This document shows, piece after piece, positions 5,551-59,616 of a DNA stretch of 64,000 nt. The notes beneath the pieces were generated by a model. It saw only the letters and a list, made by a program, of their open reading frames with translations. It did no database searches and had not been told where the DNA came from. The DNA comes from an uncultured Gammaproteobacteria bacterium (GTDB lineage Bacteria > Pseudomonadota > Gammaproteobacteria > JASBUN01): NCBI GenBank assembly GCA_963762165.1, contig CAVXJN010000001.1, forward strand, positions 570,900 through 634,899, given 5' to 3'. Made by a program: the position numbers and the translations under genes. The stretch's first letter is position 1, and every line of letters starts with the position of its first letter.

Positions 5551-5823
5551 GGCCCGGAGTTCACCAGCAAGGCACTGTTCTTCTGGGCGAAGGATCACGG
5601 CGTGCAGTTGCACTTCATCCAGCCTTGCAAACCGACACAGAACGCATTCGTCGAAAGCTTCAACGGCAAGTTCCGGGATCAATGTCTCAACCAACATTGG
5701 TTCCGTGATCGGTTCGACGCCCGCAACACGATTGAACAATGGAGAACCCACTACAACCACGTCAGGCCGCACCGTTCCTTGCAGAACTTGCCACCCGCGG
5801 TTTTCGCCGGACAGGCCGCCTGA
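5551..5823 (+). CDS. IS3-family transposase OrfB, C-terminal portion
   Basis: GPEFTSKALFFWAKDHGVQLHFIQPCKPTQNAFVESFNGKFRDQCLNQHWF...HYNHVRPHRSL is the conserved C-terminus of IS3/IS407 OrfB. Confidence 0.8.
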   Translation, partial: GPEFTSKALFFWAKDHGVQLHFIQPCKPTQNAFVESFNGKFRDQCLNQHWFRDRFDARNTIEQWRTHYNHVRPHRSLQNLPPAVFAGQAA

Positions 5824-21128: not shown

Positions 21129-23911
21129 CTATCCATAGACCGCTTCAAGTCTTTCGCGGCCAATTCCACTCTGGATCGAGCGTCTCGTTAGTAACGGATC
21201 GACGATACGTCGTGCGTCGCGTTTCGCGTCGTCTTTCAGTAGCGCACGTGCCAAGTCAAGCTGAATTCGCGCATCGTTCGGTACAATTTTAGCAGCCTGT
21301 TGCAGTGTAGAAAGCGCCAGCTTGGTTTGACCGTTTCTTAGCAGCAACATGCCCATTGTGTCGAGCACCTGCGGGTCGTTAGGCGCCAGTTGTTGAGCGC
21401 GCTCAGCAACCGAAAGTGCGCGCGGGAGATTCTGATCCCGCAGTAGCCAGGCGACATTGTTCAACGCCCGAATATTGGATGGCGAGTGCTCCAAGACTTG
21501 CTCGTAAGTTTTCAAGGCATCGCTTGATTGATCGTTCGATAGGTACGCGCCGGCGAGTTGCATCGAAACCGGTGTATCGCGCGGGTGCTTGTCGACCCAA
21601 GTGCGCATGACCTGGACGGCACGATTGCGCTTATGCTGCGCCCAAAGTGCCCGCGACCAGAGCAATGTCAGCTCTGATCCGGCTTCTTTGCTGTCGCCTG
21701 CTCTAACTTCTGGGCAGCTGCGGCGTAATCACCAGTGAGTAACGCATACCATCCTTCTAGGCCCAACACCTCGACGCGGTCACCGAATTCCGCCCGTAGT
21801 TGCTTGATCTGGATATCCGCATCGTGGATGCGACGCTCCTGTACCATCAGCTTGATCTTACCGATTCGCGCCGGCAAATACTTGGGATCAAGCGAAGTCG
21901 CTTTATCGACCGCCTCGCGTGCGGCCTCCAATTCACCGTTACGTGCCAACGCCTCCCCATACATAAAATTGGCCTCTGGCGACTTGGGAGCAATTTCTTT
22001 CCATTTCTTAAACGATCCCTTGGCACCCAACACGTCGCCAGTCATCAGCTCCGTCCTACCCTTAATGTCGAGCAACCGGGGACACTGGTTAAGTTGACTG
22101 GGCCCAATGTCGCGCGTCAGCTTCATACGTCGTCGAACCGGTCTTGCTCGAACAACCGCTTGGCCAGTGCGAAGCGAATCTCCACCGATTGGGGATTTCT
22201 GCTCAGCGCATTAGAAAGGAGGTCAGTTGCTTTTTGTGGCTGCCCTTGGCCGTCAGTAATTTCGCCAGCAAGAGAGCCGCATCCTGATCTTGGACCTTCT
22301 TCTTGAGGTATCCCGTCAATAAAGATTCTGCTTTATCGAGGTGCCCCTGCTGACGCTCCGGCTTCGCGAGGTTTTTCACTGCAGTAGGGTCAGTCGAGTC
22401 CAACTCCAGGACTTCGTTTAGATATTTTCGCGCCTCGCTCCAATCCGCTGTAGCGAGATAACACCCGGCGAGCAGGTTCAAAGGATCTATCCGCTCCGGA
22501 AACTGCTCGTGTAGCTTTTTCGCCCTGGTCACGGCCAGCTCGAAGTTGCGCGCCTTAAACGCCTCGATCGCATACAATAACTTTCGCACGTATTCCTGCT
22601 GCGCGCTCGCATTACCCGTAGCACCCGCGTCCACTGCGTTGTCGAGCTGCTGATTATTCAGGAGCTTTGCCACCATCAAAGTATAGTTCTCACCGGGTGA
22701 ACCTGAATGCGGGTCCTCGATTTGCTTGGCATATTCCATAGCGCGCTTTGGGTCACCTTCGAGCCATGAAAGCGTTGCTGACAGCCGGAGTATCTCCGCG
22801 TCGTTTGCGTGCCGAGCACGCGCCTGCTGCAGAATCTGGTCCGCCTCTTCCAATTTTGATTGCCGCAGATACACGGCAGCGAGAATGCGTTGGGGGCCGA
22901 CCGCGTACGGCGCTTGTGATGAGGCTTTCTGCGCGAACTGGAGGGCTTGCTCTAAGTTACCCAAAATCAAGTTGGTCGCGGCCAAATACATGGTGGCTTG
23001 ATAAAAATCGGGCACGCGATTGATTGCTGACTGAAATTCCGCCTCGGCCTGGCGATACTTCCGCTGCTTGAAGTAATTGATGCCCGCCACGTAATTGACG
23101 TACGGATGTTTCCGCAGGCCGTATTTCTTTAATGTACGCAGATCTTCGTCCGCTTCGTCGTACTTTCCCTGCTGAGCACGCGCCAAGGCGCGCTTGGCTA
23201 CGTCCGTATTGACATAATGACGGAGGGCAATCGCTTTACTGAACGCCTTTTCCGCCTCATCGGCTTTACCTTCGCTCAGGGCCATCTCCCCAAGCAAGCT
23301 CCAGCTGGCTGCGACATCAGGGTGTTGCTTTTGAACATTCTTCAGTTGCTCTCGCGCCCCAGTCAAGTCACCTTGACGCCACGCTAGCTGCGCGATACCC
23401 ACCTGCGCCTCCGGATAGTCATTGACGACACCCAGCGCATGTCGGTACGATTCGTCGGCATCACGAACGCGGCCCGACCCTAAATAGGCGTGGCCGCGCA
23501 ATGTCCAGTACTCCGCCTGCACGGGCGCCGGCGAGTCTGCCGCGGGCGGCTTCTGGCGCAAATTTCGTCGATCTGAGCTTCCAAAAACTCCGCTCTCATC
23601 AGCGGTACCACGACGGCATCCTCGCTTACACCGAGATTCATGGCGCGCCGCAGTTCTTTTTCTGCGCTTGCGCCATCTCCCAACTCGATGTAGGTGCGAC
23701 CCAATAACCAGCGAGCTTCAGGATTATCTGGATTGACCTGGAGCGCGTTCTTAAGGTCGATGGCCGCGGCTTGGTAATTCCCGCCGTCCCGCGCGTCTTT
23801 TGCGCGCTGTCCGTGCTAGAAATAGGTAAAATTGGTGTCTGAACTGCACCCCGAAATCGCTGTCAGAATCGCGATCGAGAGGCCCGAAAAGATAACTTTC
23901 AACGTCTGCAT
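21129..23911 (-). pseudogene. Second PrsT-like PEP-CTERM system TPR-repeat lipoprotein, degraded (nonsense codon plus several frameshifts)
   Basis: Starts MQTLKVIFSGLSIAILTAISGCSSD (lipobox); in-frame TAG at 23816-23818 after 31 codons; continues colinear with PrsT through ORFs 23480..23704, 22203..23561, 21668..22126 and 21129..21665; total span about 858 codons. Confidence 0.7.
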
Positions 23912-23971
23912 ATTACCCGCATCCTACACAGTGGATTCAAATCACGCCATAAGCTGCACTGCCTGGGCCCG

Positions 23972-26836
23972 CTAACCCCTAGTCTTGAGTTCTCGCAGAA
24001 GCGCCTTCGCGTCCTCGGCTTCGGGAAAACCGGGGTTTGATTTCAACAGTCTCTGCAACTCTTTGCGCGCTTCGATGGCGTTTCCCGCCGCATTCAACGC
24101 CACCGCGTAATGGTATTGTATGCTGCCGATATGCGGAGCCCTCGCGACTGCCATGCGAAGCATTTTCAGACCTCCTTCGACATTTCCGGTCTGTAGCAGC
24201 ATCCAACCATAGGTGTCGATGATTTCCGGCTGATCCTGTTTGAGTTCATAGGCTTTTTTTGCGAGACTTAATGCGTTGCTTTGCTCATTCTGGTCAAGAT
24301 ACAGCCATGCCAGATTATTTAATATAATCGCGTTATTAGGCTGTAGTTTATTGGCCGCTGCGTATTGGTCGATCGCCTCCTCGCGGTGTCCGGTCGACTG
24401 TAGCTGAGAAGCCAACACCATACGTGCACGAACGTCCCTCGGATTCTGTTCAATCCAGGCGAGCAGTCCTTGTACGGCTTGAGTTCCGCGGCCCAAATTT
24501 TGCCTCATCTTAAAGAGCGCGATCGCTCTGTCACTCGTCGACTGGATCGCTTGCGCTTTCTCGAATGCGCGCTCTGCGGATTCATACTCGCGCTTCTGGA
24601 ATTCGGCCTTTCCCTCTAACTCAAACCCGACTCCTGACTTCGGATAATGTGTTTGGATCGTGCGCGCAGTCGCGATAACTTGCTCGTAATCGTCACGTGC
24701 AGCCTCGAGTTTGGCCCGCAACAACAGAGAGGGAAGATGATTCGGCGTTAAGTTCAATGCTTCCTGTAATTCCTTTTCGGCAGTGGCGCTGTCGCCGGAG
24801 ATCGCACGCGCATTTGCAAGCAGGTAGTGTGATTCACTTGACTTTGGCTCCACATTCACCAATCGCTCGAACGTCACCAAAGCGCTCGCTTTTTCACCGA
24901 CTGCAAGTTGTGCCCGCCCTAAGGTACGCAAAGCGCTAGGATGTCGAGGAAACTTATCGGCCAGTTGACGAGCGGTGCTCAACGCTTGCAGTGGGGTATT
25001 CTGGGACAGTTCCAAACGCGTCAACAATACCAGTGGCTCGAGAGCATCGGGATTTGCATCGCGCGCCTGCTGAAGGCGTTGTCGAACTACATCAGGCTTT
25101 CCCTCACCTTCAGCCAGGCGCGCGAGCTCCAACAGTATCTGCAAATTGCCGTGGTCGTAGTTCAATACCTCCGTGAGTCGTTTAATGGCGGAGTCACGGC
25201 GCCCTTCTCGCTCGTCCAATCGAGCTAGATTCAATCGCGCCGGTGTGAATTTGGGATCAATCTCCAGAGCCCTGTGCAAATACTTCCGTGCTTCCTTGGG
25301 CACTCCTTTGCTAAGATAGGCAGCCCCGATTACGTTATACGGCAGAGGGTTGTCCGGATGCCGCTTTGCCATGGCCTGTGCCGCTTTCAGCGCTTCTTCG
25401 TACTGCCCTTGGCGCAAGTGGACCATGACCAACAAAAGATCCGCCTGAATCAGATCAGGATCCAACTGTACAGCCGCCTCAAGCTCGGACACCGCACGCC
25501 CGGTATCTCCGCTACCCAGTTGACTGATGCCAAGCTGGGTCCTGATAGCAGCCTCATTGGGTGCCAGGTCCGCGGCGCGATTCAGGTACTCGCTTCCCTT
25601 TGTAAAGTCGCCGCTCTTCATGTACGCAGTACCCAGCAATGCAAAAAACTGGGGATCGTCCCCGACCGTCGGGATACGGGGCTCGAGCATCTGCAATGCG
25701 CCTTTAGGATCTCCCCGCTTGAGTCGCACGACCGCCAACAGTTTTACCGCACGCAGGTCGGAAGGTTGCATCGAGACGAATTTCTTCAAAAAACTTTCCG
25801 CTGTTTCCAGTTGCCCTTTCCGATAGTTCAGAACCCCGAGCAGCAGATTGGCTGGGGCGTAATCCGGGGCGCTACGCAGGATTTCGGTGAGCTGATTTTC
25901 AGCATCATCATTCTGATCCCGCCCCAACGCGATCAATGCGCGCATATACCGGGCAAGTACCAACCGGTTGGAGATCTGTCCGAGCGCATTGAGATCCTGT
26001 TCCGCCTCGTCGTACTTTCTCACCCCCAGATGCGCCGCCGCTTGCGCAATACGCAGACTGATGTGGTGCGGATTAAGTTGTACACCTTTGTCGTAAGCCG
26101 CCAAGGCATCCGTGAATTTGCCCTGATGCTGGAGCATGCGGCCTTTGAAAAGGTAGGCCTCAAGATAGTTTGGGTCGGCCGCAATCGCTTGCTCTGCGAG
26201 GGACGCGGCCCGCGCCTCATCGCCGTCCTGACGCGCGAATTGCGCCTCCAACAACAAGACTTTTGCGCTTTTGGGGGCCAGTTGACGCGCTAGTTCGAAT
26301 TCTTCGTGAGCCAGTTTTGGATTCCGATTAATCAATGCAGCATCGGCTCGCATGGCATGGATCTCGACTTGAAGCTCCTTGGAATCTCCTTTTTCCACCT
26401 GCAGGTCCTTGAGCACCTCGCCGGCTTTGTTTTGCCACAAGTCGCGCCTGGGCCAAGCGGAATCAGCCACTTGTCTCGAGGTGCACCCAGTGTCGCGGGC
26501 GCGCTGCAATTCCTTTTCAGCCGAAATCACATCACCGGCCCGCAAATAGGTGTTGCCCAGAAGAAGGCGCGCCTCCGCATCCTTCGGATCATTCTGAAGC
26601 GCGTTTTTGAGTTCGATCACAGCAGTGCGCAAGCGGTCGTTGCTGGAGCGCGTCCTTTGCGGACTGCAGATGGTCTCTGGGCTGCGAACGACGGCGCAGC
26701 CGCCGCACAGCGCAACCATCGCGGCTGCCATTAAGAGCGCCGCTTTCGGCAACATCGTGTGTTTGATCGGCTTTCCCATCGATTCCCTCCCGCAAGAACT
26801 TGCGTATCGCATACCTTTACGGCCCGCGATTGGCAT
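23972..26836 (-). CDS. prsT: PEP-CTERM system TPR-repeat lipoprotein PrsT
   Basis: 954-aa all-TPR protein with signal peptide (LLMAAAMVALCGGC) immediately downstream of prsK-prsR; start codon uncertain (possibly the internal Met at about 26755). Confidence 0.8.
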   Translation of the reverse strand: MPIAGRKGMRYASSCGRESMGKPIKHTMLPKAALLMAAAMVALCGGCAVVRSPETICSPQRTRSSNDRLRTAVIELKNALQNDPKDAEARLLLGNTYLRAGDVISAEKELQRARDTGCTSRQVADSAWPRRDLWQNKAGEVLKDLQVEKGDSKELQVEIHAMRADAALINRNPKLAHEEFELARQLAPKSAKVLLLEAQFARQDGDEARAASLAEQAIAADPNYLEAYLFKGRMLQHQGKFTDALAAYDKGVQLNPHHISLRIAQAAAHLGVRKYDEAEQDLNALGQISNRLVLARYMRALIALGRDQNDDAENQLTEILRSAPDYAPANLLLGVLNYRKGQLETAESFLKKFVSMQPSDLRAVKLLAVVRLKRGDPKGALQMLEPRIPTVGDDPQFFALLGTAYMKSGDFTKGSEYLNRAADLAPNEAAIRTQLGISQLGSGDTGRAVSELEAAVQLDPDLIQADLLLVMVHLRQGQYEEALKAAQAMAKRHPDNPLPYNVIGAAYLSKGVPKEARKYLHRALEIDPKFTPARLNLARLDEREGRRDSAIKRLTEVLNYDHGNLQILLELARLAEGEGKPDVVRQRLQQARDANPDALEPLVLLTRLELSQNTPLQALSTARQLADKFPRHPSALRTLGRAQLAVGEKASALVTFERLVNVEPKSSESHYLLANARAISGDSATAEKELQEALNLTPNHLPSLLLRAKLEAARDDYEQVIATARTIQTHYPKSGVGFELEGKAEFQKREYESAERAFEKAQAIQSTSDRAIALFKMRQNLGRGTQAVQGLLAWIEQNPRDVRARMVLASQLQSTGHREEAIDQYAAANKLQPNNAIILNNLAWLYLDQNEQSNALSLAKKAYELKQDQPEIIDTYGWMLLQTGNVEGGLKMLRMAVARAPHIGSIQYHYAVALNAAGNAIEARKELQRLLKSNPGFPEAEDAKALLRELKTRG

Positions 26837-26922: not shown

Positions 26923-28275
26923 TCAAGAGCGCATATTGAATTTATCCAGTAACGTATACAGCGTCGGACGCGTGATCCCCAACAATTCGGCCGCACGCGA
27001 CAGATTCCCATCCGCGACGGACAATGCACGCGAGAGTGCGTGCCGTTCGGCCTGCTCCCGTACCTGGCGAAGGTTGAACGGCATGCTTTCGTCCTGCGCC
27101 TCAGCCAGTTCCAGGTCTTCTGCCGTAACCTGTGTCCCCTCGGCCATGATCACCGAACGCTTCACCCGATTTTCCATCTCTCGGACATTGCCCGGCCACT
27201 GATAGTGCTCGATCGCGGCCAATGCTTCTTTGCTGAAGCTGCGCACGGAGCGGCTGTTCTTGTCGGCATAGCGCTTCAGAAAGGTACTCGCCAACACTAC
27301 CGCGTCGCCTTGACGGTCCCGCAGCGGAGGCACAATGAGCTTGATTTCGCTGATTCGGTAGTAGAGATCTTCTCGGAACGTGCCTTCCTGAATCAATTGC
27401 GTCAGGTCACGGTGCGTGGCGCAAACCACCCGTACATCCACGGCGATCTCGGCTCTGCCGCCCACTCGCTCGATCACGCGCTCCTGTAAAAAGCGCAACA
27501 ATTTGGCCTGCAGCGCCAACGGCAGATCGCCCACTTCGTCGAGAAACAGCGTGCCGCCGTCAGCGTATTCGATTTTACCTTTGGTCTGCTTGGCCGCGCC
27601 GGTGAAAGCGCCCTTCTCATAACCGAAAAGCTCGCTTTCCAGAAGGTTTTCAGGGATCGCGGCGCAATTGATGGCGACGAAACTGCCCTGGGCGCGGCTG
27701 CTCAGATTATGGATCGCTCTCGCCACCAGTTCTTTGCCGGTACCGCTCTCCCCCAAGATGATCGTCGTCGCGTCCGTGGGCGCCACTTTTTCCACGGTCC
27801 GACATACTTTGAGCATTTCCGGGCTGGTGGCGATGATCCCCTCCAGAGGCGAATCGCCTTTTGCGCTGGCGAGGCGGCGGTTCTCGTCTTCCAATTCATA
27901 CACGCGGTAGGCGCGCTCGATGATCAACCCCAGGATTTCCGGTTCGATGGGTTTCTGGTAGAAGTCGTACGCTCCAAGGGCGATGGAACGCACGGCGTTT
28001 TCCCGATCTTCATTGCCCGTCACGACAATGATCTTGGTGTGCGGCGCAAGTCGCAAAATCTCCTCCAGCGTCGCAAGTCCCTCGCTGGCATTTGCCGGAT
28101 CCGGAGGCAGCCCGAGATCCAAAGTCACCACGGCCGGCTCGTGCCGGCGCAGTTCGTTAATAGCCGTCTCCTTGTCCCCCGCGATCAGCACATCGTAGTG
28201 CTCAAACGACCAGCGGAGCTGGCTTTGCAATCCGGGATCGTCCTCAATTACCAGTAGTGTTTTATTGGCTGTCAA
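26923..28275 (-). CDS. prsR: PEP-CTERM-box response regulator PrsR (NtrC-family sigma-54 activator)
   Basis: Receiver domain (DDPGL...TLDLGLPP), AAA+ sigma-54 interaction domain (GESGTGKE, GAFTGA), C-terminal Fis-type HTH; start overlaps prsK stop (ATGA). Confidence 0.85.
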   Translation of the reverse strand: MTANKTLLVIEDDPGLQSQLRWSFEHYDVLIAGDKETAINELRRHEPAVVTLDLGLPPDPANASEGLATLEEILRLAPHTKIIVVTGNEDRENAVRSIALGAYDFYQKPIEPEILGLIIERAYRVYELEDENRRLASAKGDSPLEGIIATSPEMLKVCRTVEKVAPTDATTIILGESGTGKELVARAIHNLSSRAQGSFVAINCAAIPENLLESELFGYEKGAFTGAAKQTKGKIEYADGGTLFLDEVGDLPLALQAKLLRFLQERVIERVGGRAEIAVDVRVVCATHRDLTQLIQEGTFREDLYYRISEIKLIVPPLRDRQGDAVVLASTFLKRYADKNSRSVRSFSKEALAAIEHYQWPGNVREMENRVKRSVIMAEGTQVTAEDLELAEAQDESMPFNLRQVREQAERHALSRALSVADGNLSRAAELLGITRPTLYTLLDKFNMRS

Positions 28276-30390
28276 TTCGCAGTCTCTGCAGCGCGTTGAA
28301 CGTCGTGTCCGGGCGCGTCTCGGTACAGCGGCAACCGGACCTGAAATTTGCTTCCGTTCCCGGGCTCGCTGGTGACCAGCAGGTCGCCGCCCTGCGACCA
28401 GATGAATTCTCTGCTTTCGTAGACGCCGATCCCCATTCCCGCGTTGCCCTTGGTGGTTTCAAATGGCCGGAATAAGCGTTCGCGAATAAACTTTTCGTCC
28501 ATGCCGCAGCCATCGTCCGTAACCTCGATGAGAACGTCATCGTGATCGACCCCGGCCTTTACCAGCACCCGGCCCTGCCGAGACGTGGCTTCCTGCGCGT
28601 TTTGGATCAGATGCGACAATACGTTGGTCAGTTTTTCGGCGTCTATCACCAGTAGCAATTGACGGTCTTCGGATTCCAGCGACGGTACAGGATCCTGACC
28701 GGCACAAGTCGATACGGCATCGCGCAAGATTGGCTGCAAATCGACGATCGATTTAGCAGCCTCTACTGTACCACCCTTGCGCAACTGTGCCAGCATCCTG
28801 TTCATCTTCGCAGTCGCGTTTTCGACCGTACTGATTGCGTCCGCCACGAAAGCGGGGTTATCGAGATGACGCTTCGCATTTTTTACTACCAACGACAGCT
28901 GCGCGCTGACATTCTTCAAATCGTGCACCACATATGATGAAAGTCGATTGAACGCTTCGAATTGACGGGCGTTCATCAATGCTTCGCTGGTCTCCACCAA
29001 CGCGATGTAACTGGCAATCTGCAGTCCGACCGTCTTCAGCAAGTCACGATCTTCCCAGTTAATATTACGCAGTGCGCGTGGCCTTCCCAATACCACGAAA
29101 GCGATAAGTGTCTCGTCGCGCAGCAACGGGACCACGAGCCAAGCCCGCGGCAACTCTTCGAGCCAATCCGGTAGCATCAGATCTTCATATAACTCTGGAT
29201 TCTCCCTGAATTCGTCCAGATCGATGACCCACTTCCGGGTGCGCAGAAAACGAATCACAGGCGCGTCTTCCTTGATCACTGCATGCGCCGTCTCGTTCAT
29301 GTTCCAATGCTCAGCCCCCGCATAGTGCCCGGCGTCGGTCTGAGTCCAGAGCATGCCGCCGGTACTTTCGACGATATCCGCCAGCGATCGAATCGCCCGT
29401 TGCCGCGGGTTCAGTTCGCCGTCTCCGGCCAGCAGACTTCCCGACAACTTCAACCATTCTTCTCGGTAATCGTACTTGTAATTGAAAAAATGCTTACTGA
29501 GAAATACCTTGAGTTTGGCTCGCATCTGCCCGGAAAACAGCAACACACCCAACAGCAGCAGCGCGAATGCCAAGAACGTCGCCTGTGCAGCGGTGCCCCA
29601 ACTACCTCCGAATTGGCGTATGTAATAGCCGGCCGCGGCCATGACCAGCAGGTAAAGTCCCTGCCCCGGCGAGCGTGACGGTATGGAACACCACCCGTCT
29701 GGAGATGAATACATCCAGGGACCAGGCCGGGTTGCGTGCCGCCGAAACCGCCAGCATCGGAACAACCAAAGCGTTGACGAACCCACGCGCTGTCCACAAA
29801 TCGTAATCGATCTGCTTGAACAGCAACGCATCCGAATACAGAAAAAAATCGTAGGCGAAAATGGCGCCTACGCCCAAAAATAGATACTTCACCGACCAGC
29901 GCCCCGACGGGCGGGTATTGCGAAATAATTGCTCCACCAAGGCCATGCCGATCAAAGCCAACAGCAAGTGGCCGGTCATTGCCGCCTGTGTCGGCGATGC
30001 CGAGTGTATTACCTTCGTGACCAGTTGCGGCACCAAGTCGATCAGCAGGACCACCGCCGCGGTGACTAGCGCGACAGGCTCAGCAAACGTCAACAACCCC
30101 GTATGCTCGCGCTCCGAGACCTTCAATGGTCGCAGCAGTCGAAACAGGAACACGTACCAGGTGATGTCGCGCAGGATTTCCAGCGTGTGATAGGCGATCG
30201 GAGAAACCGGTGCCTGAATCTGTGGCCCGAGTGCTGCCACCACCCCCCACACCGTACTGGTGGTCACGGCGGCGACCAGCGCCGCGCCTTCAAGGCGGCC
30301 CCGCCAACTCGTCAGCAGCAACAAAGCAAGCAGTAGAAATGCGCCCGCTGCGACGAGGTAGCTCACCAGGCCGATGTCAACCGCTTGCAT
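28272..30390 (-). CDS. prsK: PEP-CTERM system histidine kinase PrsK, with a +/-1 frameshift at a C4/G4 run near 29665
   Basis: Polytopic N-terminal domain (ORF 29602..30390) and HisKA/HATPase C-terminal part (ORF 28272..29831; HDLKN, DDGCGMD, GMGIGV) overlap in different frames; joined they give about 706 aa, the expected PrsK size. Confidence 0.7.
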
Positions 30391-39451: not shown

Positions 39452-40446
39452 TCAGGGCGAGACCGAGAATCGTGCGGTACGGCCCCGGGTGTGGGATGCC
39501 ACGTCTACCGGCTTGCCGTTGAGTTCCAACCGTACCGCCGGTGCATTCCCCAGCACCAGTCGGAACGGCGGTTTGCCCTGAACCGTACGTGTTTCGCCCG
39601 CATTCGCCAGCCGATACAACAGCCGCTGCCCCGCAGCATCGCGCACTTCGACCCAGGAGCGGTCCGTAAACGCCAGCGTCAGCGTGTCGCCCGCGACAGC
39701 TTCCGACGATTGCGGCGCAGCCGAGGGCGGCGCGACGGTACTGGGCGACGTCGGTTCGACAGGAGCGGGCGCTGCCGGTGGCGCAGCATCTTCGCCGGGC
39801 GGCCCGACATCGTCCGGCGGCGGCACCACCGGCTGTGCCTGAGGCGGCAGGTCGCCATCGTCCCCGGGCGTTTCAGCCGAACCGCTTCCCGGCTGCACGG
39901 GCTGTCCCGGCTGTCCTGCGGGCGGGATACCGCCTTGGCTTGGCTCACCGGCATTGTTGGAAGCTGCAGGCGGTGCTTGCGTTTGGCCGACATTTTGAGC
40001 GGAGCCTGGCCGGTTACCGACGATCGTCCGGGCGGCGAAGCGGTACGTTGCTGAAACCACCAACCGGCGGCGACGGCAATCACCAGCACCAGCAGCCAGA
40101 CAAGATAATTTCGGCGTCGCGCGCCGACCAGTTGTTGCTGCATGGGTCCGGCGCGCAGACCCTGATTCTGGGCACCACCGACGGAAGCGTTGTAGGCCTC
40201 CACCAGTTCCTGCGCCGGCAATCCGAGCAGCGCCGCGTAATTGCGAACATAGCCGCGAACAAAGATCGGTGCCGGCAACTTTTCCGCAGCGTCGTGTTCT
40301 AGCGCGTCAATGGTGTCGACGCTCAGGCGCAACTCCAACGCCACATCCGCCAGCTTGAGGCCGGCGGCTTCCCGTCCTGCGCGCAACCGCGCGCCAGGCG
40401 GCTCCATGCCGCTGTCGGCGCTTTCCATTTCAGCTTCACTGGCCAT
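39452..40446 (-). CDS. rodZ: Cytoskeleton protein RodZ (HTH plus DUF4115), in two frames (frameshift near 40000-40063)
   Basis: N-terminal XRE-HTH and TM in ORF 39679..40446; Pro-rich linker and C-terminal DUF4115 (...LTLAFTDRSWVEVRDAAGQRLL...) in ORF 39452..40063; joined length about 331 aa. Confidence 0.65.
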
Positions 40447-41194
40447 GCTTGTCCGAATTCAGCAACAATCGGGTCTGCTCGGAGTCTGGAAATTTCGCCC
40501 GCAACCGCAAGGCGTAACTCGAAGCCGCGTCGCGATCATTGAGCTTACGCTCAGTCCGAACCCCCAGCCAGAGACTCTCAGCGGTGGTTTGCCCCACTTC
40601 GGCGTAACGCTGTAAGTAGGCTCGTGCCTGCAGGTAGTGCGCGCCCTGATAGCTGATTTCACCCATTTTCAAAAGCGCTACCGGGAATTTCGGATTCCTT
40701 CGCAATGCGGCGCGAAAATGCTTTTCCGCCGACCCGGTATCCGAGTGTCGCAACGCACAAAGGCCGGCATTGGTGTGCGCATGTTCCGGTGTTTCGTACA
40801 GCGGATTCTTCAGCGCGTCCATGAACTGCTCTTCGGCCTTGTCGTACTGCTCCTGTTCACAGAGGAACACGCCGTAATTATTGTGGAACTGGGGGTCGCC
40901 GGGGTCCAACCGAATGGCTTCACGAAACTCGCGTTCGGCCTTGTCCTTTTCACCCAGTCGCCAGTTCAAAATGGCCAGCGTGCCGTGCGCCTCGGGGTAA
41001 TTCGGCGCGTCGTCGATGGCCCGCTGCAGCTTGACCATAGCCTGCTTGAAGTCGCCTTCGTGAATATAGGCCTTGCCCAGTTCCACATTCAAACGCGCCG
41101 GACTGTTGATACTTTCCTCTCGCGCATTGTCGGGCGTACAGGCTGCCAACGGCATCAGCAACAAAGTGCAGCACAAAGTGCGCACGATACTCAT
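40436..41194 (-). CDS. pilW: Type IV pilus biogenesis/stability TPR lipoprotein PilW (PilF)
   Basis: Lipobox LMPLAAC; TPR repeats; conserved rlmN-pilW-rodZ synteny. Confidence 0.75.
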
Positions 41195-42315
41195 GCGCCT
41201 AGCTCCGGTCGGTCGAGTTCGACCTTGATGCGATGTTTGGCCTGCCGGCTGGTGCGATCCTGTACTTCGCCGACCAACTGACCGCAGGCGGCCGCAATAT
41301 CGTCTCCGCGTGTCTTACGCGTCACTGTCATAATGCCCGCCTCCATCAGTACGTCGCGGAACTTGTTGATGGCACGGTCGCTTGAACGCTGCCAGGGCGC
41401 GCCCGGAAAAGGGTTGAAGGGAATCAGATTGATTTTCGAGGGAACGTCCGCCAGTACGCGAGCCAACTGTTTCGCGTGCTCAACGCCATCGTTGACGCCG
41501 TCGAGCATGACGTATTCGAATGTGATGCGCCGATGGGCTTGACCGTCCACATAGCGTTTGCAGGCCGCCAACAGTTCCGCGATTGGATACTTCTTGTTCA
41601 GCGGCACCAGGCGATTTCGCAATTCGTCATTCGGCGCGTGCAGAGATACGGCCAAGCTCACGCCGCTCACCTCCCGCAATCGGTCGATCTGCGGCACGAC
41701 GCCGGCCGTGCTCAGCGTGACACGTCTGCGGGAAATACCAAACCCCAGATCTTCCATCATGACGTCCATGGCGGGGACGACGTTGTCGAAATTCATCAAC
41801 GGCTCGCCCATACCCATCATCACCACATTGGTGATGACGCGTTCGCCCCGATTTTTCGGGATGCCCAAGGCGCAGGCGGCGAACAGCACCTGGCCGACGA
41901 TTTCCGCGGCGCTGAGGTTACGATTGAATCCTTGGGTCGCGGTCGAACAGAAGGTGCAGTTCAGGGTACAACCGACTTGGCTCGAAACACACAGGGTGCC
42001 GCGATCCGACTCCGGGATGAATACCGTCTCGATGGCATTGTGATCGCCCATGCGCAACACCCATTTGCGGGTACCGTCCGAGGAAGGCTGATCCAGCACC
42101 AACTCCGGCATCCGCACCTCGGCGACGTCACCGAGCTTAGCGCGCAGCGCCTTGCTCAAATTGGTCATGTCGTCGAAATTGGTCACACCCTCATGGTAGA
42201 TCCAACGCATGACCTGTTGCGCCCGAAACGCTTTTTCGCCGCGCTCGGCGAAAAAGCGTTCCATCTGGCTTCGGGTCAAGCCAAGTAAATTGATCTTGTC
42301 CGGGTGTATCCGCAA
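41191..42315 (-). CDS. rlmN: 23S rRNA/tRNA (adenine-C2)-methyltransferase RlmN (radical SAM)
   Basis: Radical-SAM CxxxCxxC ([11 protein letters not shown]); 374 aa; ndk-rlmN synteny. Confidence 0.9.
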
Positions 42316-42321
42316 TTTCAG

Positions 42322-42753
42322 TTACCGGGTGCGCGCGCAAATCTCGTCGTCTTGAAAGAAAAACGCGATCTCCTGCTTGGCAGTCTCCGGCGCGTCCGAT
42401 CCGTGCACCGCATTTTCGTCAACGGTTTCGGCAAAATCAGCTCGAATGGTGCCGGGTTCGGCATCCTTCGGGTTGGTAGCGCCCATGATTTCACGGTTGC
42501 GTGCAATGGCGTTGTCGCCTTCGAGGACCTGTACCATCACCGGACCGGAAGTCATGAATGCAACCAGGTCCTTATAGAACGGACGCTCTTTGTGAACGGC
42601 GTAGAACTGCTGCGCCCGCGCTTCGCTCAAATGGACCATCTTCGCGGCGACAATGCGCAAGCCGCCCTTCTCGAAGCGGCTGTAGATTTCGCCGATGACA
42701 TTTTTCGCCACGCCGTCCGGCTTGATGATGGATAAGGTTCGTTCAATAGCCAT
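42322..42753 (-). CDS. ndk: Nucleoside diphosphate kinase
   Basis: [15 protein letters not shown]...; 143 aa; NDK active-site region ...NAVHGSD. Confidence 0.95.
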
Positions 42754-42899
42754 CCGATACTCCCAGTTGCACGCCTGTCAGAATTGGAACCCGTCGCAAA
42801 ACGGTGGATCGCAGACCACTACGAGGCTTGGTGGTCGCGCACTTTCCATAGCATAAACCCGCGTGATGCCGCGGGTTTGCCGTAGTTTACCGCCAGCCA

Positions 42900-43740
42900 C
42901 GGACGCAGGCAATCAGCCCCGCTCCGGGAACCCCGTCAATACCGCCCTTCGATCAGGCAATCTCGATCGCTTCCAGGACGCCGCAACGTTCGGGCGGCGT
43001 CGAAATGCCTCGCCCACGCCCACCATTTGATGAGCACCACCGGACCGCATGCCGAGCTGACGGCCGCCGCCGCGCATCTGGGCTTCACAGGGCACGCGTT
43101 CGCGCGTACGAGGCACCCACCCGTTCAGGGGTTGTAAGTTTCATGGGCGGCTAAAACATCAGTTCGACTTTGCTGCGCGAAAGATCGACCGCCAGCTTAG
43201 CTGGCGCTCTGGGTCGCATCGCGGTCGAAAATCACACTGCGCTGGCGACAAATCTCGTCCAGGGCGTGCGATGTCCTGAATAACGCCGATATCGTTGTTT
43301 GTCGTGCATGATAGAGGCGACTGACGGGTCGTCCCGCGGCGCTGCCTCGAATTGGCAGCGGGATCCTGCAGCCCGTTTGGCGTGCTCTCACAGCTGACGT
43401 CGTAAGCTTCGCAGCGCAACTGCCGGCAGGTATCAAGCCTTGCCTTGTGCTCGGTTTTGCAGCTGTGCTCGGTTTTGCAGCGGCCCCGGTACTGGCCTTT
43501 ACTTCTGATAGAAATGGAACGCCCTTGTCGCATTCCGCCCCCCGGACGTCCGGAGGATTTCCTTCGGGTGTCCGCGTTGATCAGCGGCGGCAGCTTCGTC
43601 GCGAGCCTGTGGCGCCGTCGTCTCCGCCTGCCAACCATTGGTATGCGACCGCGCTGCGTACTCGACGAAACCATCTTGTATGGTCAGGTGCGCGCACCGT
43701 TGTTCCGCGAATCGCGCGGCCACAGGGGTGCGTGTCAAAT
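42900..43740 (-). pseudogene. iscS: Cysteine desulfurase IscS remnant: multiple frameshifts, internal loss and 3' truncation
   Basis: Scattered over three minus-strand frames: ...ARSHTNGWQAE (IscS ASRSHRFGWQAE), KTEHKARLDTCRQL, NNDIGVIQDIA, DATQS, RVPCEAQMRGGGRQLGMRSG (IscS [20 protein letters not shown]); covers only about residues 1-290 and then abuts ndk. Confidence 0.7.
43446..43481. repeat. Perfect 18-bp tandem duplication (TGTGCTCGGTTTTGCAGC x2) inside the iscS remnant
   Basis: Direct visual identification; duplicates the KTEH-coding segment of iscS. Confidence 0.85.
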
Positions 43741-43803
43741 ATTCCAGACGAATCGGCGGTTTTCGGTCGCTTACGATGACTTCCGCGTTACTCGGATGCG
43801 CTC

Positions 43804-44301
43804 TCAGACCCGTGCGCCGCCGGCACTGGCCGTTCGCTCCAATTTCACGGGATGACTACCGGTGCTCTTCAAGTCCTGGCGGTCGGCCACTTCCCGAACG
43901 CCCTTGCGGTCCATCAGTTGCCGGAGGCTGATCGAACTCAAAAAAGTATAGATCTGATCGCTCAAATCGACCCAGAGTTCATGGGTGAGGCAACGTTCAT
44001 CGTCCTGGCAATTGCTCATTCCGCCACAACGAGTCGTGTCGACCTTTTCGTCGACAGCGGTGATGACATCGGCCACGGCGATCTCGCTGGCCGGACGGCT
44101 GAGCGCGTACCCACCACCCGGGCCGCGGGTGCTCTTGACCAGTCCGGTACGCCGCAGCTTGGTGAACAATTGCTCCAGATACGACAGCGAAATACCTTGG
44201 CGCTCGGAGATGTCGGCAAGGGAGATAGGGCCGTTTTCGTAGTGGATTGCCAAGTCCAACATGGCGGTCACCGCATATCTGCCTTTGGTCGTCAGTCTCA
44301 T
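43804..44301 (-). CDS. iscR: Fe-S cluster assembly transcriptional regulator IscR (Rrf2 family)
   Basis: [18 protein letters not shown]...[10 protein letters not shown]...[12 protein letters not shown], near-identical in pattern to E. coli IscR including the cluster-ligand cysteines. Confidence 0.9.
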
Positions 44302-44386
44302 TGATCTGTCCCGCGTTTCATAATAGGATAAACAAGCTTATGCATTTCTGACTAAATTGGTCAAGTATTATACCCCCCGCTCCCCA

Positions 44387-45223
44387 TTAGTCAACTTCGC
44401 GGTCATCGGGCTTGGCCGGCGGACCCTCCGGCACGTCATCCAAGCGAGCGTCCTGGGCCATTCGTTCGGTCGCGCTGCTGATTTCACACGGCTCCAGCTC
44501 CGGCAGCTGCAGATCCCCCACTTCCGCCCCCACGCTCTTGATCGCACTGCACATGTCTTCCAAACGCTTGTCCATTGTGTGGATATGATCGAGCATGCAG
44601 TTGATGGCATGGGCAACCGGGTCTGGAGTGGACTTGCTCATCCCGTAGGCGTCGAATCCCATTTTCTTGGCAATCGCTTCGCGGGTACGGTCCCGTTCGG
44701 TCTTTTCCGTCGTTGGCGTCACGATCCGCCCCGGAACGCCGACCACCGTCGCCCCGGGCGGCACGTCCCGTAACACGACTGCATTGGAACCGATGCGCGC
44801 GCCATCGCCCATGCGGATAGGCCCGAGAATCTTCGCCCCGGCGCCGATCACGACGTTGTTGCCCAATGTCGGATGGCGTTTGCCTTTCTGCCAACTGGTA
44901 CCACCCAGTGTGACGCCGTGGTAAAGCGTGCAATCGTTGCCGATTTCCGTGGTTTCTCCGATCACCACACCCATACCGTGATCGATGAAAAAACGCCGTC
45001 CGATCTGCGCTGCCGGGTGAATTTCGATTCCGGTCAACCACCGCGCGATACTCGACAGCCAACGCGCCAACCATTTCAGGCCGAGCTGCCACAAACCGTG
45101 GTTCATGCGATGCCACAGCACTGCGTGCACACCGGGATAAGTGGTCAAGACCTCCAAGCGATTGCGTGCCGCCGGATCGCGCTCGAATACGCAGTTAATA
45201 TCTTCCCGCAGACGTTCGAACAT
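44387..45223 (-). CDS. cysE: Serine O-acetyltransferase
   Basis: Left-handed beta-helix hexapeptide repeats; [29 protein letters not shown]; start at MFERLREDI. Confidence 0.85.
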
Positions 45224-45310
45224 GATTCTCTTTCGCCGTAGTGTGGCAGACGGACTCCAGTCCATCTTCAGAGTGATCTAAGCCACCATTATAGGGGCAG
45301 ACCTCCAACA

Positions 45311-46078
45311 TCATACTGCATCGTCGGGCCGAGGCGGGCTGCCGCCGGACTGGCGCTGCACGGCGCTCAACACACCGCGGAGGATGTTGATTTCGCGCAA
45401 ATCCGGATGGGCGCGATTGAACAAGCGCTTGAGTCGACGCATGAGGTGTTTGGGTTGCGCCGGATCGAGAAAATCGACCGCCACCAGCACCCGTTCCAGG
45501 TGCTCATAGAATCGCAACAGGTCCTCGGTGCCCGCCGGCCGGTCCAACGGATCGACGGTCTCGGCGATCTCCGTGGCGTTCAATGGCTGCTGGCCTGCAG
45601 CCATCATGAGTTCGTAGCTCAGGACTTGCACCGCCGCCGCGACATTGAGGGAGCTGAATTCAGGATTGCAGGGAATGTGTACCAGGTAGTGACAGCGCTC
45701 CAGTTCCTCATTGCTCAAGCCGCTGCGTTCGCGCCCAAACACCAGCGCGACGGCGCCGCGGGATGCCTCGCGTGCGACCAATTCTGCGCATTCACGCGGG
45801 TCCAACTGGGGCCAGCGCAGTTTGCGCAACCGGGCGCTTGCACCGATGACCAGATGACAATCGGAGACCGCTGCCTCGAGAGAGTCGTGGACACCCGCCC
45901 GGGCGAGCACGTCATCGGCGCCTGAGGCGCGCGCAGTTGCGTCTGCATGGGGAAACTGCGCGGGACGCACCAGGGATAAGCGCGACAAGCCCATGTTCTT
46001 GAGCGCGCGCGCGGCGGCGCCGATATTACCCGGATGGGTCGTTTCCACCAGCACCGTTCGGATGTTGTCCCTTTGCAT
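45311..46078 (-). CDS. trmJ: tRNA (cytidine/uridine-2'-O)-methyltransferase TrmJ (SpoU family)
   Basis: IRTVLVETTHPGNIGAAARALKNMGL...ALVFGRERSGLSNEEL...PEFSSLNVAAAVQV, colinear with E. coli TrmJ. Confidence 0.85.
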   Translation of the reverse strand: MQRDNIRTVLVETTHPGNIGAAARALKNMGLSRLSLVRPAQFPHADATARASGADDVLARAGVHDSLEAAVSDCHLVIGASARLRKLRWPQLDPRECAELVAREASRGAVALVFGRERSGLSNEELERCHYLVHIPCNPEFSSLNVAAAVQVLSYELMMAAGQQPLNATEIAETVDPLDRPAGTEDLLRFYEHLERVLVAVDFLDPAQPKHLMRRLKRLFNRAHPDLREINILRGVLSAVQRQSGGSPPRPDDAV

Positions 46079-46189
46079 CGCGGCACCATACCGACTTCAC
46101 GCCCGGCGAGGCAAGCGGTCCCGGTTATCCGACGGTCGGATCTCTGGTATCCTTGCCTGCTCGCCGACACGCTACACCGGAACCACCTC

Positions 46190-46990
46190 ATGCACCCCAT
46201 GCTCAACATTGCTGTGCGCGCCGCCCGCAGCGCCGGCAACGTCATTACGCGCTACGTTAGCCGGCTGGATACCCTTTCCATTACCAGCAAGCAACGCAAC
46301 GATTTCGTCAGCGAAGTCGATCATCTGGCCGAACAGGAAATCATCGCGGTATTGCACAAAGCCTTCCCCAGCCATGGAATTCTCGCTGAAGAGAGCGGCG
46401 AGCAAGGCCGCGACGATGAATATCAATGGGTGATCGACCCCCTCGACGGCACCACCAATTTCCTGCACGGTTTTCCGCAGTTCGCAGTATCCATCGCGCT
46501 CAAACACCGGGGCCGTCTGGATCAGGGCGTAATCTACGACCCGATCCGCCAAGAACTGTTCACCGCCAGCAAGGGTGCCGGCGCGCAACTCAACAACAAG
46601 CGCATCCGCGTCACCGGCCGCAAGACGCTCGAGGGCGCGCTGCTGGGGACGGGATTCCCGTTTCGCCAGCAACAGCACCTGGACGCCTATCTGGAAATGT
46701 TCCGGGCGTTGTTCACAGATACCGCCGGCATCCGGCGTGCAGGTGCGGCATCTCTCGACCTCGCGTATGTAGCCGCCGGGCGCCTTGATGGCTTCTGGGA
46801 AATCGGCCTTTCAGAATGGGATATGGCGGCCGGGGCTTTGATGATTCGCGAAGCGGGCGGCCTGATCACCGACTTCGGGGGCGGCGAAGATTATCTCGAA
46901 ACCGGAAATGTCGTTGCCGCCACGCCAAAACTGCATCATATTTTGCTGCAGTCGATCGCGCCTCATCGGGGAAAAGCGTTGGCACAGTGA
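46190..46990 (+). CDS. suhB: Inositol monophosphatase/Nus factor SuhB
   Basis: Starts MHPMLNIAVRAARSAG as E. coli SuhB does; IMPase motifs WVIDPLDGTTNF and DLAYVAAGRLDGFWE. Confidence 0.9.
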   Translation: MHPMLNIAVRAARSAGNVITRYVSRLDTLSITSKQRNDFVSEVDHLAEQEIIAVLHKAFPSHGILAEESGEQGRDDEYQWVIDPLDGTTNFLHGFPQFAVSIALKHRGRLDQGVIYDPIRQELFTASKGAGAQLNNKRIRVTGRKTLEGALLGTGFPFRQQQHLDAYLEMFRALFTDTAGIRRAGAASLDLAYVAAGRLDGFWEIGLSEWDMAAGALMIREAGGLITDFGGGEDYLETGNVVAATPKLHHILLQSIAPHRGKALAQ

Positions 46991-51221: not shown

Positions 51222-53381
<2,160 letters not shown>

Positions 53382-56301: not shown

Positions 56302-57811
56302 TCAGGCTGCGGGTTCTTCCAGACGACCGTAGGCCGCCAGCATGTCGCGCAACCGCTGCGCCAGTTGTTCGTCGACCATGCTCCACTCAAAACGCCATCC
56401 CCAGTTGCCTTCGGTGACTCCGGGCACATTCATTCGATGGCGATCGTCTAGCGCCAGAAGATCCTGCATCGGCAACACGCACATCTCGGAGACCGAAGCG
56501 AGCGCTGCGCGAATCAGCGGCCACGGCTGGGGCTCCTGCGGGTAGCCCAGGTATTCGCGCACCCGTTCCTGCTGGTCGTCGCTGAGCGAGTCGAACCAGC
56601 CCACGGTGGTATTATTGTCGTGGGTGCCGGTGTAGACGACATAATCGCGTTCGTGGTTATGGGGCAGATACGGATTTTCCGGGCCGCCATCGAACGCGAA
56701 CTGCAGAATCTTCATTCCGGGCAGGCCGAAGCGATGGCGTAAGGCATCGACCTCCGGCGTAATCAGGCCCAGATCCTCCGCCACCAGCGGTAACGGATCG
56801 AAGCGGCTGCGAAAGTGTTCGAACAACTCCTCGCCGGGGGCCTCCACCCAGCGGCCGTCCACAGCGGTTTCCGCCTCTGCAGGAATTTCCCAGAAAGCCT
56901 GGAATCCGCGGAAATGATCGATGCGTACCAGATCGAACAAATCGAATTGATGTCCGACTCGACGCAGCCACCAATCGTAGCCGCTTTCACGCATGTGGTC
57001 CCAGCGATAGAGCGGATTGCCCCAGCGCTGGCCGGTCGCTGAAAAATAATCCGGCGGCACCCCCGCCACGGTCAGGGCGCGGCCCTGGTCGTCCAAGGTG
57101 AAATACTCGCGCCGTGCCCAAACCTCCGCGCTATCGTGGGCGACGAATATGGGCAGGTCGCCGAACAGCAATACGCCTCGTTGATTGGCGTAGGACTTGA
57201 GCGCCCGCCATTGACGATCGAACACGAACTGCTCGAAGCACACGCGCTCGCGTTCCTCGGCCAGTTCCGCTTTGGCATTCTCGAGCGCTTCCGGCACCCG
57301 ATCGCGTACCGGCGCAGGCCAATCAAGCCAGGAACGGCCGCTGTGCTTGCGGCGCAGTGCCTGATACAGACAATAGTCGTCCAGCCAGTATTGCTGGCGC
57401 TCACGAAACGACCGGTAGTCCGCCTTCTGTGCCTGGTCGGCATGTTCCGCGAAACCTTGCACGGGCGCGCTGCAACAACTGCTCCCGCCAGGCGGCGGCG
57501 TCGGCACCCGGTTCACCCAGGTCACCGAGCCAGCCTTCAGCCTGCAACTGTTCGGCGCTCAATCAGGCGGGACTGCCGGCGAATACCGACAAACACGGCA
57601 TAAGGTGAACCGTCGGAATGGGTCGGACCAAGGGGCAACATCTGCCAGACGGTCGCACCCGTGGAGACCAAAAAGATCGACGAAATTGCGACCTTCCTCG
57701 CCTAGCGCCCCACCGGACGCATCGCACGGCAGCGACGTCGGATGCAACAGGACGCCGGCGCGGCGCCTGCTGAATGGCGACTCTTCGGCGATTGCTTTCC
57801 GGTCGCTCATG
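56302..57811 (-). pseudogene. malQ: 4-alpha-glucanotransferase MalQ (GH77), with several frame disruptions in the N-terminal 120 codons
   Basis: Intact C-terminal 407 aa (ORF 56302..57525) with GH77 motifs; N-terminus MSDRKAIAEESPFSRRRAGVLLHPTSLP... (ORF 57559..57849); the intervening conserved segments (GSPY..., FAGSPA-stop-LSAEQLQAEGWL) appear in all three frames, including an in-frame TGA. Confidence 0.65.
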
Positions 57812-57895
57812 ACCGCTCCAATACCCGGCCGCGCAGAACCGGCAGCCAAATGTGGGTACCGGCGGCCGCGGCGAGCGGCACTTTCCCGAGCGCGT

Positions 57896-59616
57896 TCATG
57901 TTACGAAACCACAGGAAGCGCAGGACGCATTACACCGCCGACCGCGGGTTGGCCGCCGCCGTGGGTGAACGCATGCTGCAGATAGTCGCGGCGGCTCCCG
58001 CTGCAGTATCTGGTACAGGCGGGTCAGATGCTCGCGGTACAGCCAGTCGAAATCGCGTACCGACTCGGCAGGATTGTCGTCGCCAAACCACCAGAACCAA
58101 TCCGAGCCTTCGCAGATCGCGAGCTGACGTGCGGCCTGAGTCGCGGATTTCAGCGGACAAGCCGCCGCGGGCCGTCGCTGCGTCGAATGCACGCTTGGCG
58201 TCGGCAAGCATGTCCCAGCCGCGGTTCTTGTCGGCGTGGCCGACCCAGGTGGTCAAGGTGCCATACACCCAGCTGCCGGCCACGACGTGGTCGAGAGTCC
58301 GGTTTTTGGCCGCGACCTGCAGGCAATCGCCGAAGGTGGACAATTTCAGTTGCCCGTGCTGGGCCAGGCGTCGGTAGAGTTCGTCGAGAAAGTGATACCC
58401 GTTTTCCGGAAAGTGCTCCCAGGCGTTCTCACCATCGAGAATGATTGCCACGACGGCATCGTCGCGGTCCTTGCAGGCGAGTCTGATGTTTTCCAGGTGA
58501 TGCACCAGATTGGCGACGGCATCTTCCGCATGCCAGTTCGAATAACTGAAACCGATCAGATCGGACAAGCCGTCGTCGCGAAAAAAACACGCCAGTGGAT
58601 GGCCACCGAACCGGTAGACGCGGTGCTCGCAGTCATGGGACGCCCCGGCTTTGTGGCCAGCCGTGCTGAGACTGTTGCGCAACACCTGGCCGCCGGAGGC
58701 GGTCCATTGAAACCCGGCTTCGTCCAGCAAGTGCAGGGTGGCATCACTTACCGCACCCTCCCCCGGCCAGCAGCCGCGCGGACGGAATCCGAAATGGGCT
58801 CTCGAAAACGTCCATGCCTTCTTTGATATGCCAGCGGGCGCGGTCCGCGCCGCCCGGGTACAATTTGCTCGCAGGCAGCGCCAGGCCCGGCACCGCTTCC
58901 TGCGCGCTGGCCGCGTCCAACAACAGCGGTACGATGGGATGAGCATAGGGTGTGACCGACAACTCCACGCGTCCGGTTTCCGCAAGCCGGCGATAACGGG
59001 GGACGATGCCGCTCACCAGTTCGGAAATAATCGCAACCAGCGTGCGGCGGTCGCGGCTGTCGTAGTCGGCGGACTTGTCCATGAGTTCCCGCACGCGCGT
59101 GTCGCTGCGGCGTACCGTTTCGCCAATCCAGGCCAAGTGATACCAAGTGAGCAGATCGAACAGGAACTGGTCGTTGACATAGCACGCGAGTTCGGGGTCT
59201 TTGTCGATTTCACCTGCCAGCTGTACCAGGCGCCGGAACGGTTCGAACCGATCGATCATGCGCGACTGGTTAGCGCGCATGCAGGCGCGTATCAGGCTCA
59301 GGCGCCGATTCGGGTCAGCGGGCAATTTCTGTGCTGCCAGTCCCCGCAGCAATGGGTCGGGCAGCGGTTGCCCATGGCTTACGAATAGCTGCAAGGCGGT
59401 GCTGTAATGATCCAACTGTTCCAGTAACGTCGGTGTAAAATTCACCACCGCCCTGGCGCCGTCGACACGCTCCAAGTGGGCGGCCATATCGACGTAGTCC
59501 TTGATGGCGTGCAGATAGGTCCAAGGAAGTCGGTACCGGCCGCTGATCGGGTCGAGGTATTGCGGTTGGTGCATGTGCCAGCACAGCACCACCCGCAACG
59601 GAACATCACCCCGCAT
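57896..59616 (-). CDS. Glycoside hydrolase family 57 (alpha-amylase/4-alpha-glucanotransferase-type) enzyme, in three frames
   Basis: N-terminus [14 protein letters not shown] (ORF 58744..59616), middle ...[22 protein letters not shown]... (ORF 57930..58985), C-terminal [13 protein letters not shown] (ORF 57896..58207); implies frameshifts near 58800 and 58200. Confidence 0.6.

Follow-up and report, generated by a model that had tools for sequence, protein, structure and literature searches.

Gene order at the iscR-ndk locus

The 64-kb stretch of DNA that was analysed is referred to as the window. On its minus strand, trmJ, cysE, iscR, an interval of exactly 1050 bp (42754-43803), ndk, rlmN, a pilW-like TPR gene, rodZ, and hisS follow one another, and suhB lies upstream of trmJ-cysE-iscR in divergent orientation (Table 1). 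This order, which was derived from the ORFs and Pfam, agrees with the synteny (suhB-trmJ-cysE-iscR ... ndk-rlmN-pilW) and the coordinates of the initial annotation, in which about 1 kb had been placed between iscR and ndk. The ORF list holds no credible ORF inside the interval. It had been proposed that the ISC operon was gone from its ancestral slot, and that iscR and a scarred iscS fragment were left; both tblastn and a frameshift-aware alignment bore this out.

Table 1. Features of the iscR-ndk locus in window coordinates
Feature	Position	Strand	Basis
trmJ	45311-46078	-	ORF
cysE	44387-45265	-	ORF
Sigma-70-like iscR promoter (TTGACT, 16 nt, TATAAT)	44367..44394	-	11/12 consensus positions
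Putative IscR type-1-like palindromic operator	44344..44368	.	22/25 match to ATASYYGACTRWWWYAGTCRRSTAT
iscR, intact, 165 aa, Rrf2 family	43804..44301	-	ORF; PF02082 on record for product
iscS pseudogene, codons 4-257 of ~404	43000..43756	-	tblastn and frameshift-aware alignment
iscX pseudogene tail, last ~14-21 codons and original stop	42935..42999	-	local DNA alignment to L004; tblastn
Conserved ndk upstream region	42754..42920	-	91% identity to L002 and L003
ndk, intact, 143 aa	42322..42753	-	ORF; PF00334 on record for product
rlmN	41191-42315	-	ORF

The cluster-ligand motif Cys-X5-Cys-X5-Cys-X2-His of IscR was read from the translation and assigned by comparison with E. coli IscR. The iscR promoter region is conserved in the relatives L002 and L003, which come from a species-representative genome collection. 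The putative operator overlaps and follows the -10 box of this promoter. It is the only match in the window to the consensus of the type-1 IscR site, and 0 of 100 shuffles gave such a site. Moreover, the operator core TTGAC...AGTCAG is conserved in relatives. Among the three species (that of the window, L002, and L003), the dN/dS of iscR was 0.016/0.434 (about 0.03-0.04), and those of ndk and rlmN were similar. These genes are under strong purifying selection, and iscR retains its ligand motif and a predicted IscR-type operator.

On the other side of the interval, a 167-bp block upstream of ndk is 91% identical to its counterparts in L002 and L003, compared with about 68% identity at synonymous sites. 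The block contains a promoter-like element (TTGCCT at 42907-42912, a 17-nt spacer, and TAAACT at 42884-42889), 3' of which a perfect 9-bp inverted repeat, AAACCCGCG-N6-CGCGGGTTT, was found at 42855-42878. This hairpin motif was present in 17 distinct loci of relatives and nowhere else in the 1.49 Mb searched. In each locus it lies past the end of the isc operon and ahead of the next gene, which is ndk, or rlmN in the two loci that lack ndk (L028 and L030). The hairpin accompanied by TTGCCT-N17-TAnAnT was seen in L004, L009, L013, L014, L016, L020, L021, L024, L026, L028, L029, L030, and L045. The stem is almost invariant (G-U wobble variants only, in L014, L016, and L045), and the loop varies. 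The hairpin itself was predicted, but the overall fold of the block was unremarkable (z=-0.64), and the hairpin had no match in Rfam. Since the stem is kept in sequence without compensatory changes, the pattern would fit a palindrome bound by a protein, or an RNA hairpin that is recognised, better than a plain terminator. The remnant had earlier been described as fused to ndk. However, iscR and ndk are not fused, because ndk retains its own constrained upstream region, with a promoter-like element and a hairpin that relatives likewise carry 5' of ndk.

Remnants of iscS and iscX

When E. coli IscS was compared with the window by tblastn, the iscR-ndk interval was the sole place matched, in two frames (E=5e-15 and 1e-14), and the IscS of the relative L004 matched the window with E=1.7e-17. 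A frameshift-aware protein-to-DNA alignment placed IscS residues 4-257 on the interval in 8 segments using all three frames, with 135 of the 239 aligned codons identical to IscS, and revealed seven frameshifts and one in-frame stop. Seven frameshifts in the 760 bp of the iscS stump are far above the frameshift background of the rest of the window. An intact IscS (~404 aa, with the C-terminal catalytic Cys loop) is not present at the locus; the C-terminal third, with the catalytic-Cys region, is absent. The stump can thus be regarded as a unitary pseudogene, with significant homology at the syntenic slot where L004, L138, L088, and many more relatives have a functional iscS.

The initial annotation had reported IscS peptides scattered over three frames and had proposed that E. 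coli IscS be compared with the translated interval. All four quoted peptides are present, and the comparison yielded the homology together with lesions in all three frames. The 18-bp perfect tandem duplication that had also been mentioned was located inside the pseudogene at 43446-43481 (TGTGCTCGGTTTTGCAGC x2, 100% match), where it repeats 'KTEH(S/K)(C/A)'. In the alignment with L002 and L003 the 18-bp unit is single-copy in both, and the duplication is specific to the window lineage. The end of IscS had been placed at about residue 290, whereas the homology in fact ends at codon 257 (window position about 43000). A local alignment tail extending the IscS homology to residue 319 was dropped once the iscX tail had been recognised.

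At about 43000/42999, IscS codon 257 ('GEAFR') is joined directly to the tail of iscX, which reads 'PERCG-VLEAIEIA' and is followed by a 1-nt deletion and then by the original TGA. In relatives, the DNA just 5' of ndk opens with the iscX 3' end (…EKILEAIQMAWIEERD*), and the conserved promoter-like element and the hairpin come after it. Local DNA alignments of the window to nt 738-770 of the L004 iscS and to nt 157-201 of the L004 iscX each beat 200 of 200 shuffles, and tblastn of IscX against the junction tail gave E=0.023. What is left of iscX is a frameshifted 3' end and falls short of an IscX gene. Another IscX tblastn match (29154-29294, E=6e-5) is in frame within a GAF/histidine-kinase gene and was therefore treated as chance.

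The iscR-ndk interval measures 5913 bp in L004 and 1050 bp in the window, so that ~4.8-4.9 kb is missing relative to L004, somewhat less than the roughly 5-6 kb estimated earlier. The accompanying claim that everything from the iscS 3' end through iscX was lost holds as far as most of iscX, but the iscX tail was retained. Since iscS codon 257 joins iscX codon ~45 directly, the gap can be ascribed to a single deletion of ~4.8 kb. As read from this junction, one deletion removed the iscS 3' end, iscU, iscA, hscB, hscA, fdx, and most of iscX.

Arrangement in relatives and age of the loss

L002 and L003 are the closest relatives in the species-representative collection (IscR 96% identical, Ndk and RlmN 96-97% identical, dS about 0.38-0.43). 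In both of them iscR is followed by ndk, after 640 bp in L002 and 744 bp in L003, and both intervals hold IscS remnants (E=1e-8 and E=2e-3, respectively) that are fainter than that of the window and collinear. Alignments of the window junction segment with the sister intervals crossed the IscS/IscX junction and were collinear with the conserved ndk-upstream block; their scores were matched by 1 of 500 shuffles for L002 and by 19 of 500 for L003. Direct local alignment of the L002 and L003 junction regions with iscS and iscX of L004 gave no significant match, and the shared junction therefore rests on the window-sister alignments. Judged by these, a junction shared with the sisters appears well supported for L002 and weakly supported for L003.

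L087, a JGI metagenome contig (IscR 90%), also has iscR followed by ndk, after 447 bp. No IscS trace was detected in this interval, and a candidate decayed complete iscX was marginal (tblastn E=0.013; 2/60 shuffles). Since L087 seems to keep a decayed whole iscX, the deletion there would be a different event from that of the window clade, and its loss was apparently a separate deletion. ISC may have been inactivated before either of the two deletions. The next relatives, L138 (IscR 87%) and L004 and L088 (82%), have the full operon; it occupies the same slot, with a length of 5.2-5.9 kb, in these three and in the majority of some 160 related loci. When IscR, Ndk, and partial CysE were used to build a neighbour-joining tree, the topology (L138,(L087,(window,L002,L003))) was obtained. 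The ISC-less group had a bootstrap value of 68%, and the clade of the window, L002, and L003 one of 100%. L087 is the probable sister lineage of the window clade.

Because the sisters share the arrangement and the operon is complete in the nearest outgroups, we regard the loss as an old clade trait. The deletion would most likely have happened once, before the window species, L002, and L003 split. The initial annotation had assumed a recent decay of one genome, which does not agree with the arrangement shared by L002 and L003, nor with the iscR-ndk order of L087. It had itself stated that relatives with iscR adjoining ndk and no isc genes would point to a lineage trait, and this is largely what the relatives display.

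The decay of the remnant is consistent with this age. Between species, the remnant aligns in patches with 55-66% identity, which does not exceed the identity at synonymous sites (about 68-75%), compared with 91% for the ndk-upstream block. The dN of the pseudogene against the L004 iscS was 0.33, compared with 0.10-0.15 for functional orthologues at similar distance. The difference, about 0.2 per site, roughly equals the neutral divergence of one lineage after the three-species split (dS/2 about 0.2), and this agrees with constraint having been lost at about the time of that split or a little earlier. From these rates it is indicated that the remnant, unlike its flanks, is evolving neutrally.

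The slot between iscR and ndk is reduced in other related Gammaproteobacteria from the environment as well. The order iscR-iscA-ndk was found in L027, L046, and L054, and iscR-nifS-like-iscA-ndk in L015; in these four slots that keep iscA, no iscS remnant was detectable. In L008, L061, L070, and L088, a second cysteine desulfurase, which is NifS-like and shares 36-43% identity with IscS, is encoded between iscR and iscS. In L015, L031, and L093, the NifS-like gene, accompanied or not by one for an A-type carrier, is the sole Fe-S biogenesis gene detected in the slot. A complete SUF operon was found in the same slot of further relatives: L068 (10001-17824), L082, L083, L084, and L086 have the order iscR-sufA-sufB-sufC-sufD-sufS-sufU-sufT-Rieske-ndk-rlmN-pilW-rodZ, and L085 likewise has a SUF operon between iscR and ndk. 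Since the suf operon directly follows iscR there, SUF occupies the slot that ISC holds in most relatives. In L082 and L084, an rve-family transposase gene is inserted between sufB and sufC.

Origin of the interval and supply of Fe-S clusters

We consider it highly probable that the interval is a non-functional remnant of the iscRSUA-hscBA-fdx-iscX operon, produced by a shared deletion of ~4.8 kb and subsequent neutral drift. The deletion would have joined iscS codon 257 to iscX codon ~45 in the ancestor of the window species and at least two sister species, and would have taken the catalytic part of IscS, the scaffold IscU, IscA, the chaperones HscBA, the ferredoxin, and most of IscX. The stump would then have drifted neutrally and acquired the frameshifts, the stop codon, and the 18-bp duplication, presumably by slippage, and further pieces would have been lost separately in each lineage. 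Selection would have retained iscR, its promoter, and its operator on one flank, and the sequences controlling ndk on the opposite one. Fe-S clusters would now come from machinery encoded at another place in the genome, of which SUF is the likeliest, and IscR would persist as an autoregulated sensor of the Fe-S status, which obtains its [2Fe-2S] cluster from the replacement system and regulates other genes.

The composition of the iscRSUA-hscBA-fdx-iscX operon has been described for E. coli and Pseudomonas aeruginosa (PMC11559095). The window has the same flanks (cysE-iscR ... ndk-rlmN), the same iscR ligands, sigma-70 promoter, and type-1-like operator, and iscS and iscX remnants in matching order and orientation. 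However, the biosynthetic genes of the window are gone or disabled, and the regulator alone is functional. A reduced ISC operon is also known from Mycobacterium tuberculosis, in which iscS is left beside a complete SUF system (PMC10848736). Both are cases of ISC reduction in a lineage presumably reliant on another system; M. tuberculosis keeps a functional iscS, whereas in the window iscS is a dead fragment and the regulator is kept. With L027, L046, L054, and L015 the window clade shares the loss of the ISC core, which has thus repeatedly disappeared from the identical slot; those four keep an A-type carrier and no iscS remnant, whereas the window clade has no carrier and a recognisable pseudogene.

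According to published phylogenomics, the majority of bacteria possess one Fe-S system, usually SUF (PMC11559095), and for this reason a SUF-only state is the default expectation. The retention of IscR had been presented as a paradox. This falls away, since IscR controls SUF-type operons in Alphaproteobacteria, namely in Caulobacter (PMC11475020) and in the isc-suf operon of Rhodobacter sphaeroides (PMC4618611), both of them bacteria with one Fe-S system, and suf directly follows iscR in several relatives. Caulobacter, R. sphaeroides, L068, and L082-L086 resemble the window in that an IscR-family regulator is kept without the complete ISC machinery. They differ from it in that nothing functional follows the window iscR; a SUF system elsewhere and its regulation by IscR are what we infer for this lineage.

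The search for a replacement system covered the window, the sister loci, and a database. Within the 64-kb window, no suf, nif, or second isc genes were found: tblastn with the L004 proteins (E<=0.01) detected none of IscU, IscA, HscB, HscA, and ferredoxin, and the seven Suf proteins of L068 matched only a generic ABC ATPase. The 20-kb loci of L002 and L003 contained no suf genes and no other isc genes. When SufB was used as a database query, the 120 matches shared 84-100% identity with it, and none was assignable to the window clade; the two matches on long contigs are other lineages with iscR-suf-ndk. An ISC system that has moved, that is, an intact isc operon or iscSU pair that was translocated, duplicated, or horizontally acquired at another locus, is unlikely. 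Nothing positive was found for it, no further isc gene is present in the window or in the 20-kb loci of the sisters, and a database search with the L004 HscB, a weak and non-exhaustive test, gave no match above 64% identity besides the query and none assignable to the window clade. It is very improbable that the clade does without ISC, canonical SUF, and NIF altogether, with an undescribed or minimal machinery or a partner-dependent Fe-S supply and IscR kept as a sensor. In a milder version of this idea, the iscR-ndk slot may be a recurrent exchange site for Fe-S cassettes (ISC, SUF, NifS-IscA, IscA only, or empty) under one regulator.

The other alternatives concern the interval itself. A collapsed or chimeric iscR-ndk join, produced by assembly or binning, has a negligible probability; nothing beyond the general caution due to any MAG speaks for it. 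An independent Logan contig of run ERR11594398 matched window positions 41808-46468 with 99.96% identity (2 mismatches and 0 gaps in 4661 bp). As this contig is gap-free, it contains every frameshift and the 18-bp duplication too; the disabling lesions (frameshifts, stop, and truncation) were thus reproduced in another assembly and are not sequencing errors, and the mis-assembly which the initial annotation had wished to see checked is excluded. Furthermore, two other MAGs and one JGI metagenome contig have iscR adjoining ndk with collinear flanks. A recent, genome-specific decay within an ongoing genome erosion is quite unlikely. Such a decay could account for the frameshifts in tgt and rodZ that are specific to the window with respect to both sisters, for the split GH57 gene and the disrupted malQ N-terminus, and for an IS3-family element apparently interrupted by an IS110-family transposase. 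However, the arrangement and the junction are common to species at dS about 0.4, L087 lacks isc too, the coding density between 21 and 64 kb is otherwise normal, and the other frameshifts could be long-read assembly errors. Genome erosion in general is weakly suggested by the few window-specific frameshifts and the IS elements, and it is opposed by the otherwise normal coding density. A reuse of the remnant, for instance as a small RNA, a small protein, or a long 3' UTR with a regulatory role for iscR, is highly improbable. A terminator-like hairpin does lie inside the pseudogene (43516-43536), but such sites are fewer than expected from shuffles. Against reuse, the remnant diverges at or above the synonymous rate between species, carries large lineage-specific deletions, and has neither an Rfam match nor a conserved ORF; no Rfam family was found in 42700-44420 at E<=1, and a tRNA-Leu was the only Rfam match in the whole window.

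The remnant of a deleted ISC operon is therefore a case of ordinary lineage-wide gene loss which has left an unusually legible trace. Of the initial annotation, the loss of ISC and the pseudogene scar stand, but not the recent age, the fusion to ndk, or the IscR paradox. The locus offers a clean and datable example of a free-living gammaproteobacterial lineage that dropped the housekeeping ISC system and kept its regulator, with a readable junction and progressively eroded remnants in the sisters. The contents of the slot vary by lineage (ISC, SUF, NifS-IscA, IscA alone, or nothing), which illustrates the turnover of Fe-S systems and suggests that IscR can exist independently of ISC. The current understanding is not changed, since the prevalence of single-system bacteria, mostly with SUF, has already been published (PMC11559095). 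For annotation, iscS and iscX pseudogenes should be entered for the interval, and the presence of iscR should not score a genome as ISC-positive.

Other lesions were observed in the window. In tgt (51222-52331), 1 nt is inserted at about 52033, and the remaining ORF corresponds to Pfam TGT positions 92-356; in rodZ (39452-40446), 1 nt is deleted at about 40003, and the HTH N-terminus and the C-terminal domain lie in different frames. Neither indel is present in either sister, and neither is in a homopolymer. Two disrupted genes were found at 57526-59616 in a glycogen cluster (glgC, GH57, malQ, glgP-like, and glgB). The GH57 glycoside hydrolase gene is split into overlapping ORFs (58744-59616, profile 2-122; 57933-59012, profile 130-280), and the N-terminal ~100 residues of malQ are garbled, with a stop before the main ORF (56302-57525). 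The lesions in tgt, rodZ, GH57, and malQ may be real pseudogenes or long-read consensus errors; look-ups of the exact glgC, tgt fragment, and pilW proteins for an independent assembly returned no record.

The first ~21 kb of the window has a lower third-position GC and accessory-type genes, which encode GNAT/FeeM-like acyltransferases, MacB/FtsX-type permeases, an O-methyltransferase, ThiF, a glycosyltransferase, and a sulfotransferase. At 3149-5823 lies the IS3-family element, with orfA containing HTH_Tnp_1 (3149-3451) and an rve_3 fragment (5542-5823), which appears to be interrupted by the IS110-family transposase gene (4691-5533, minus strand). A row of four genes at 21129-26836 encodes TPR-repeat proteins (178, 152, 452, and 954 aa), adjoining a sigma-54 activator/histidine-kinase pair (26923-29831) and a sugar-transferase gene, and this neighbourhood looks like an exopolysaccharide (PEP-CTERM/EpsH-like) regulatory one.
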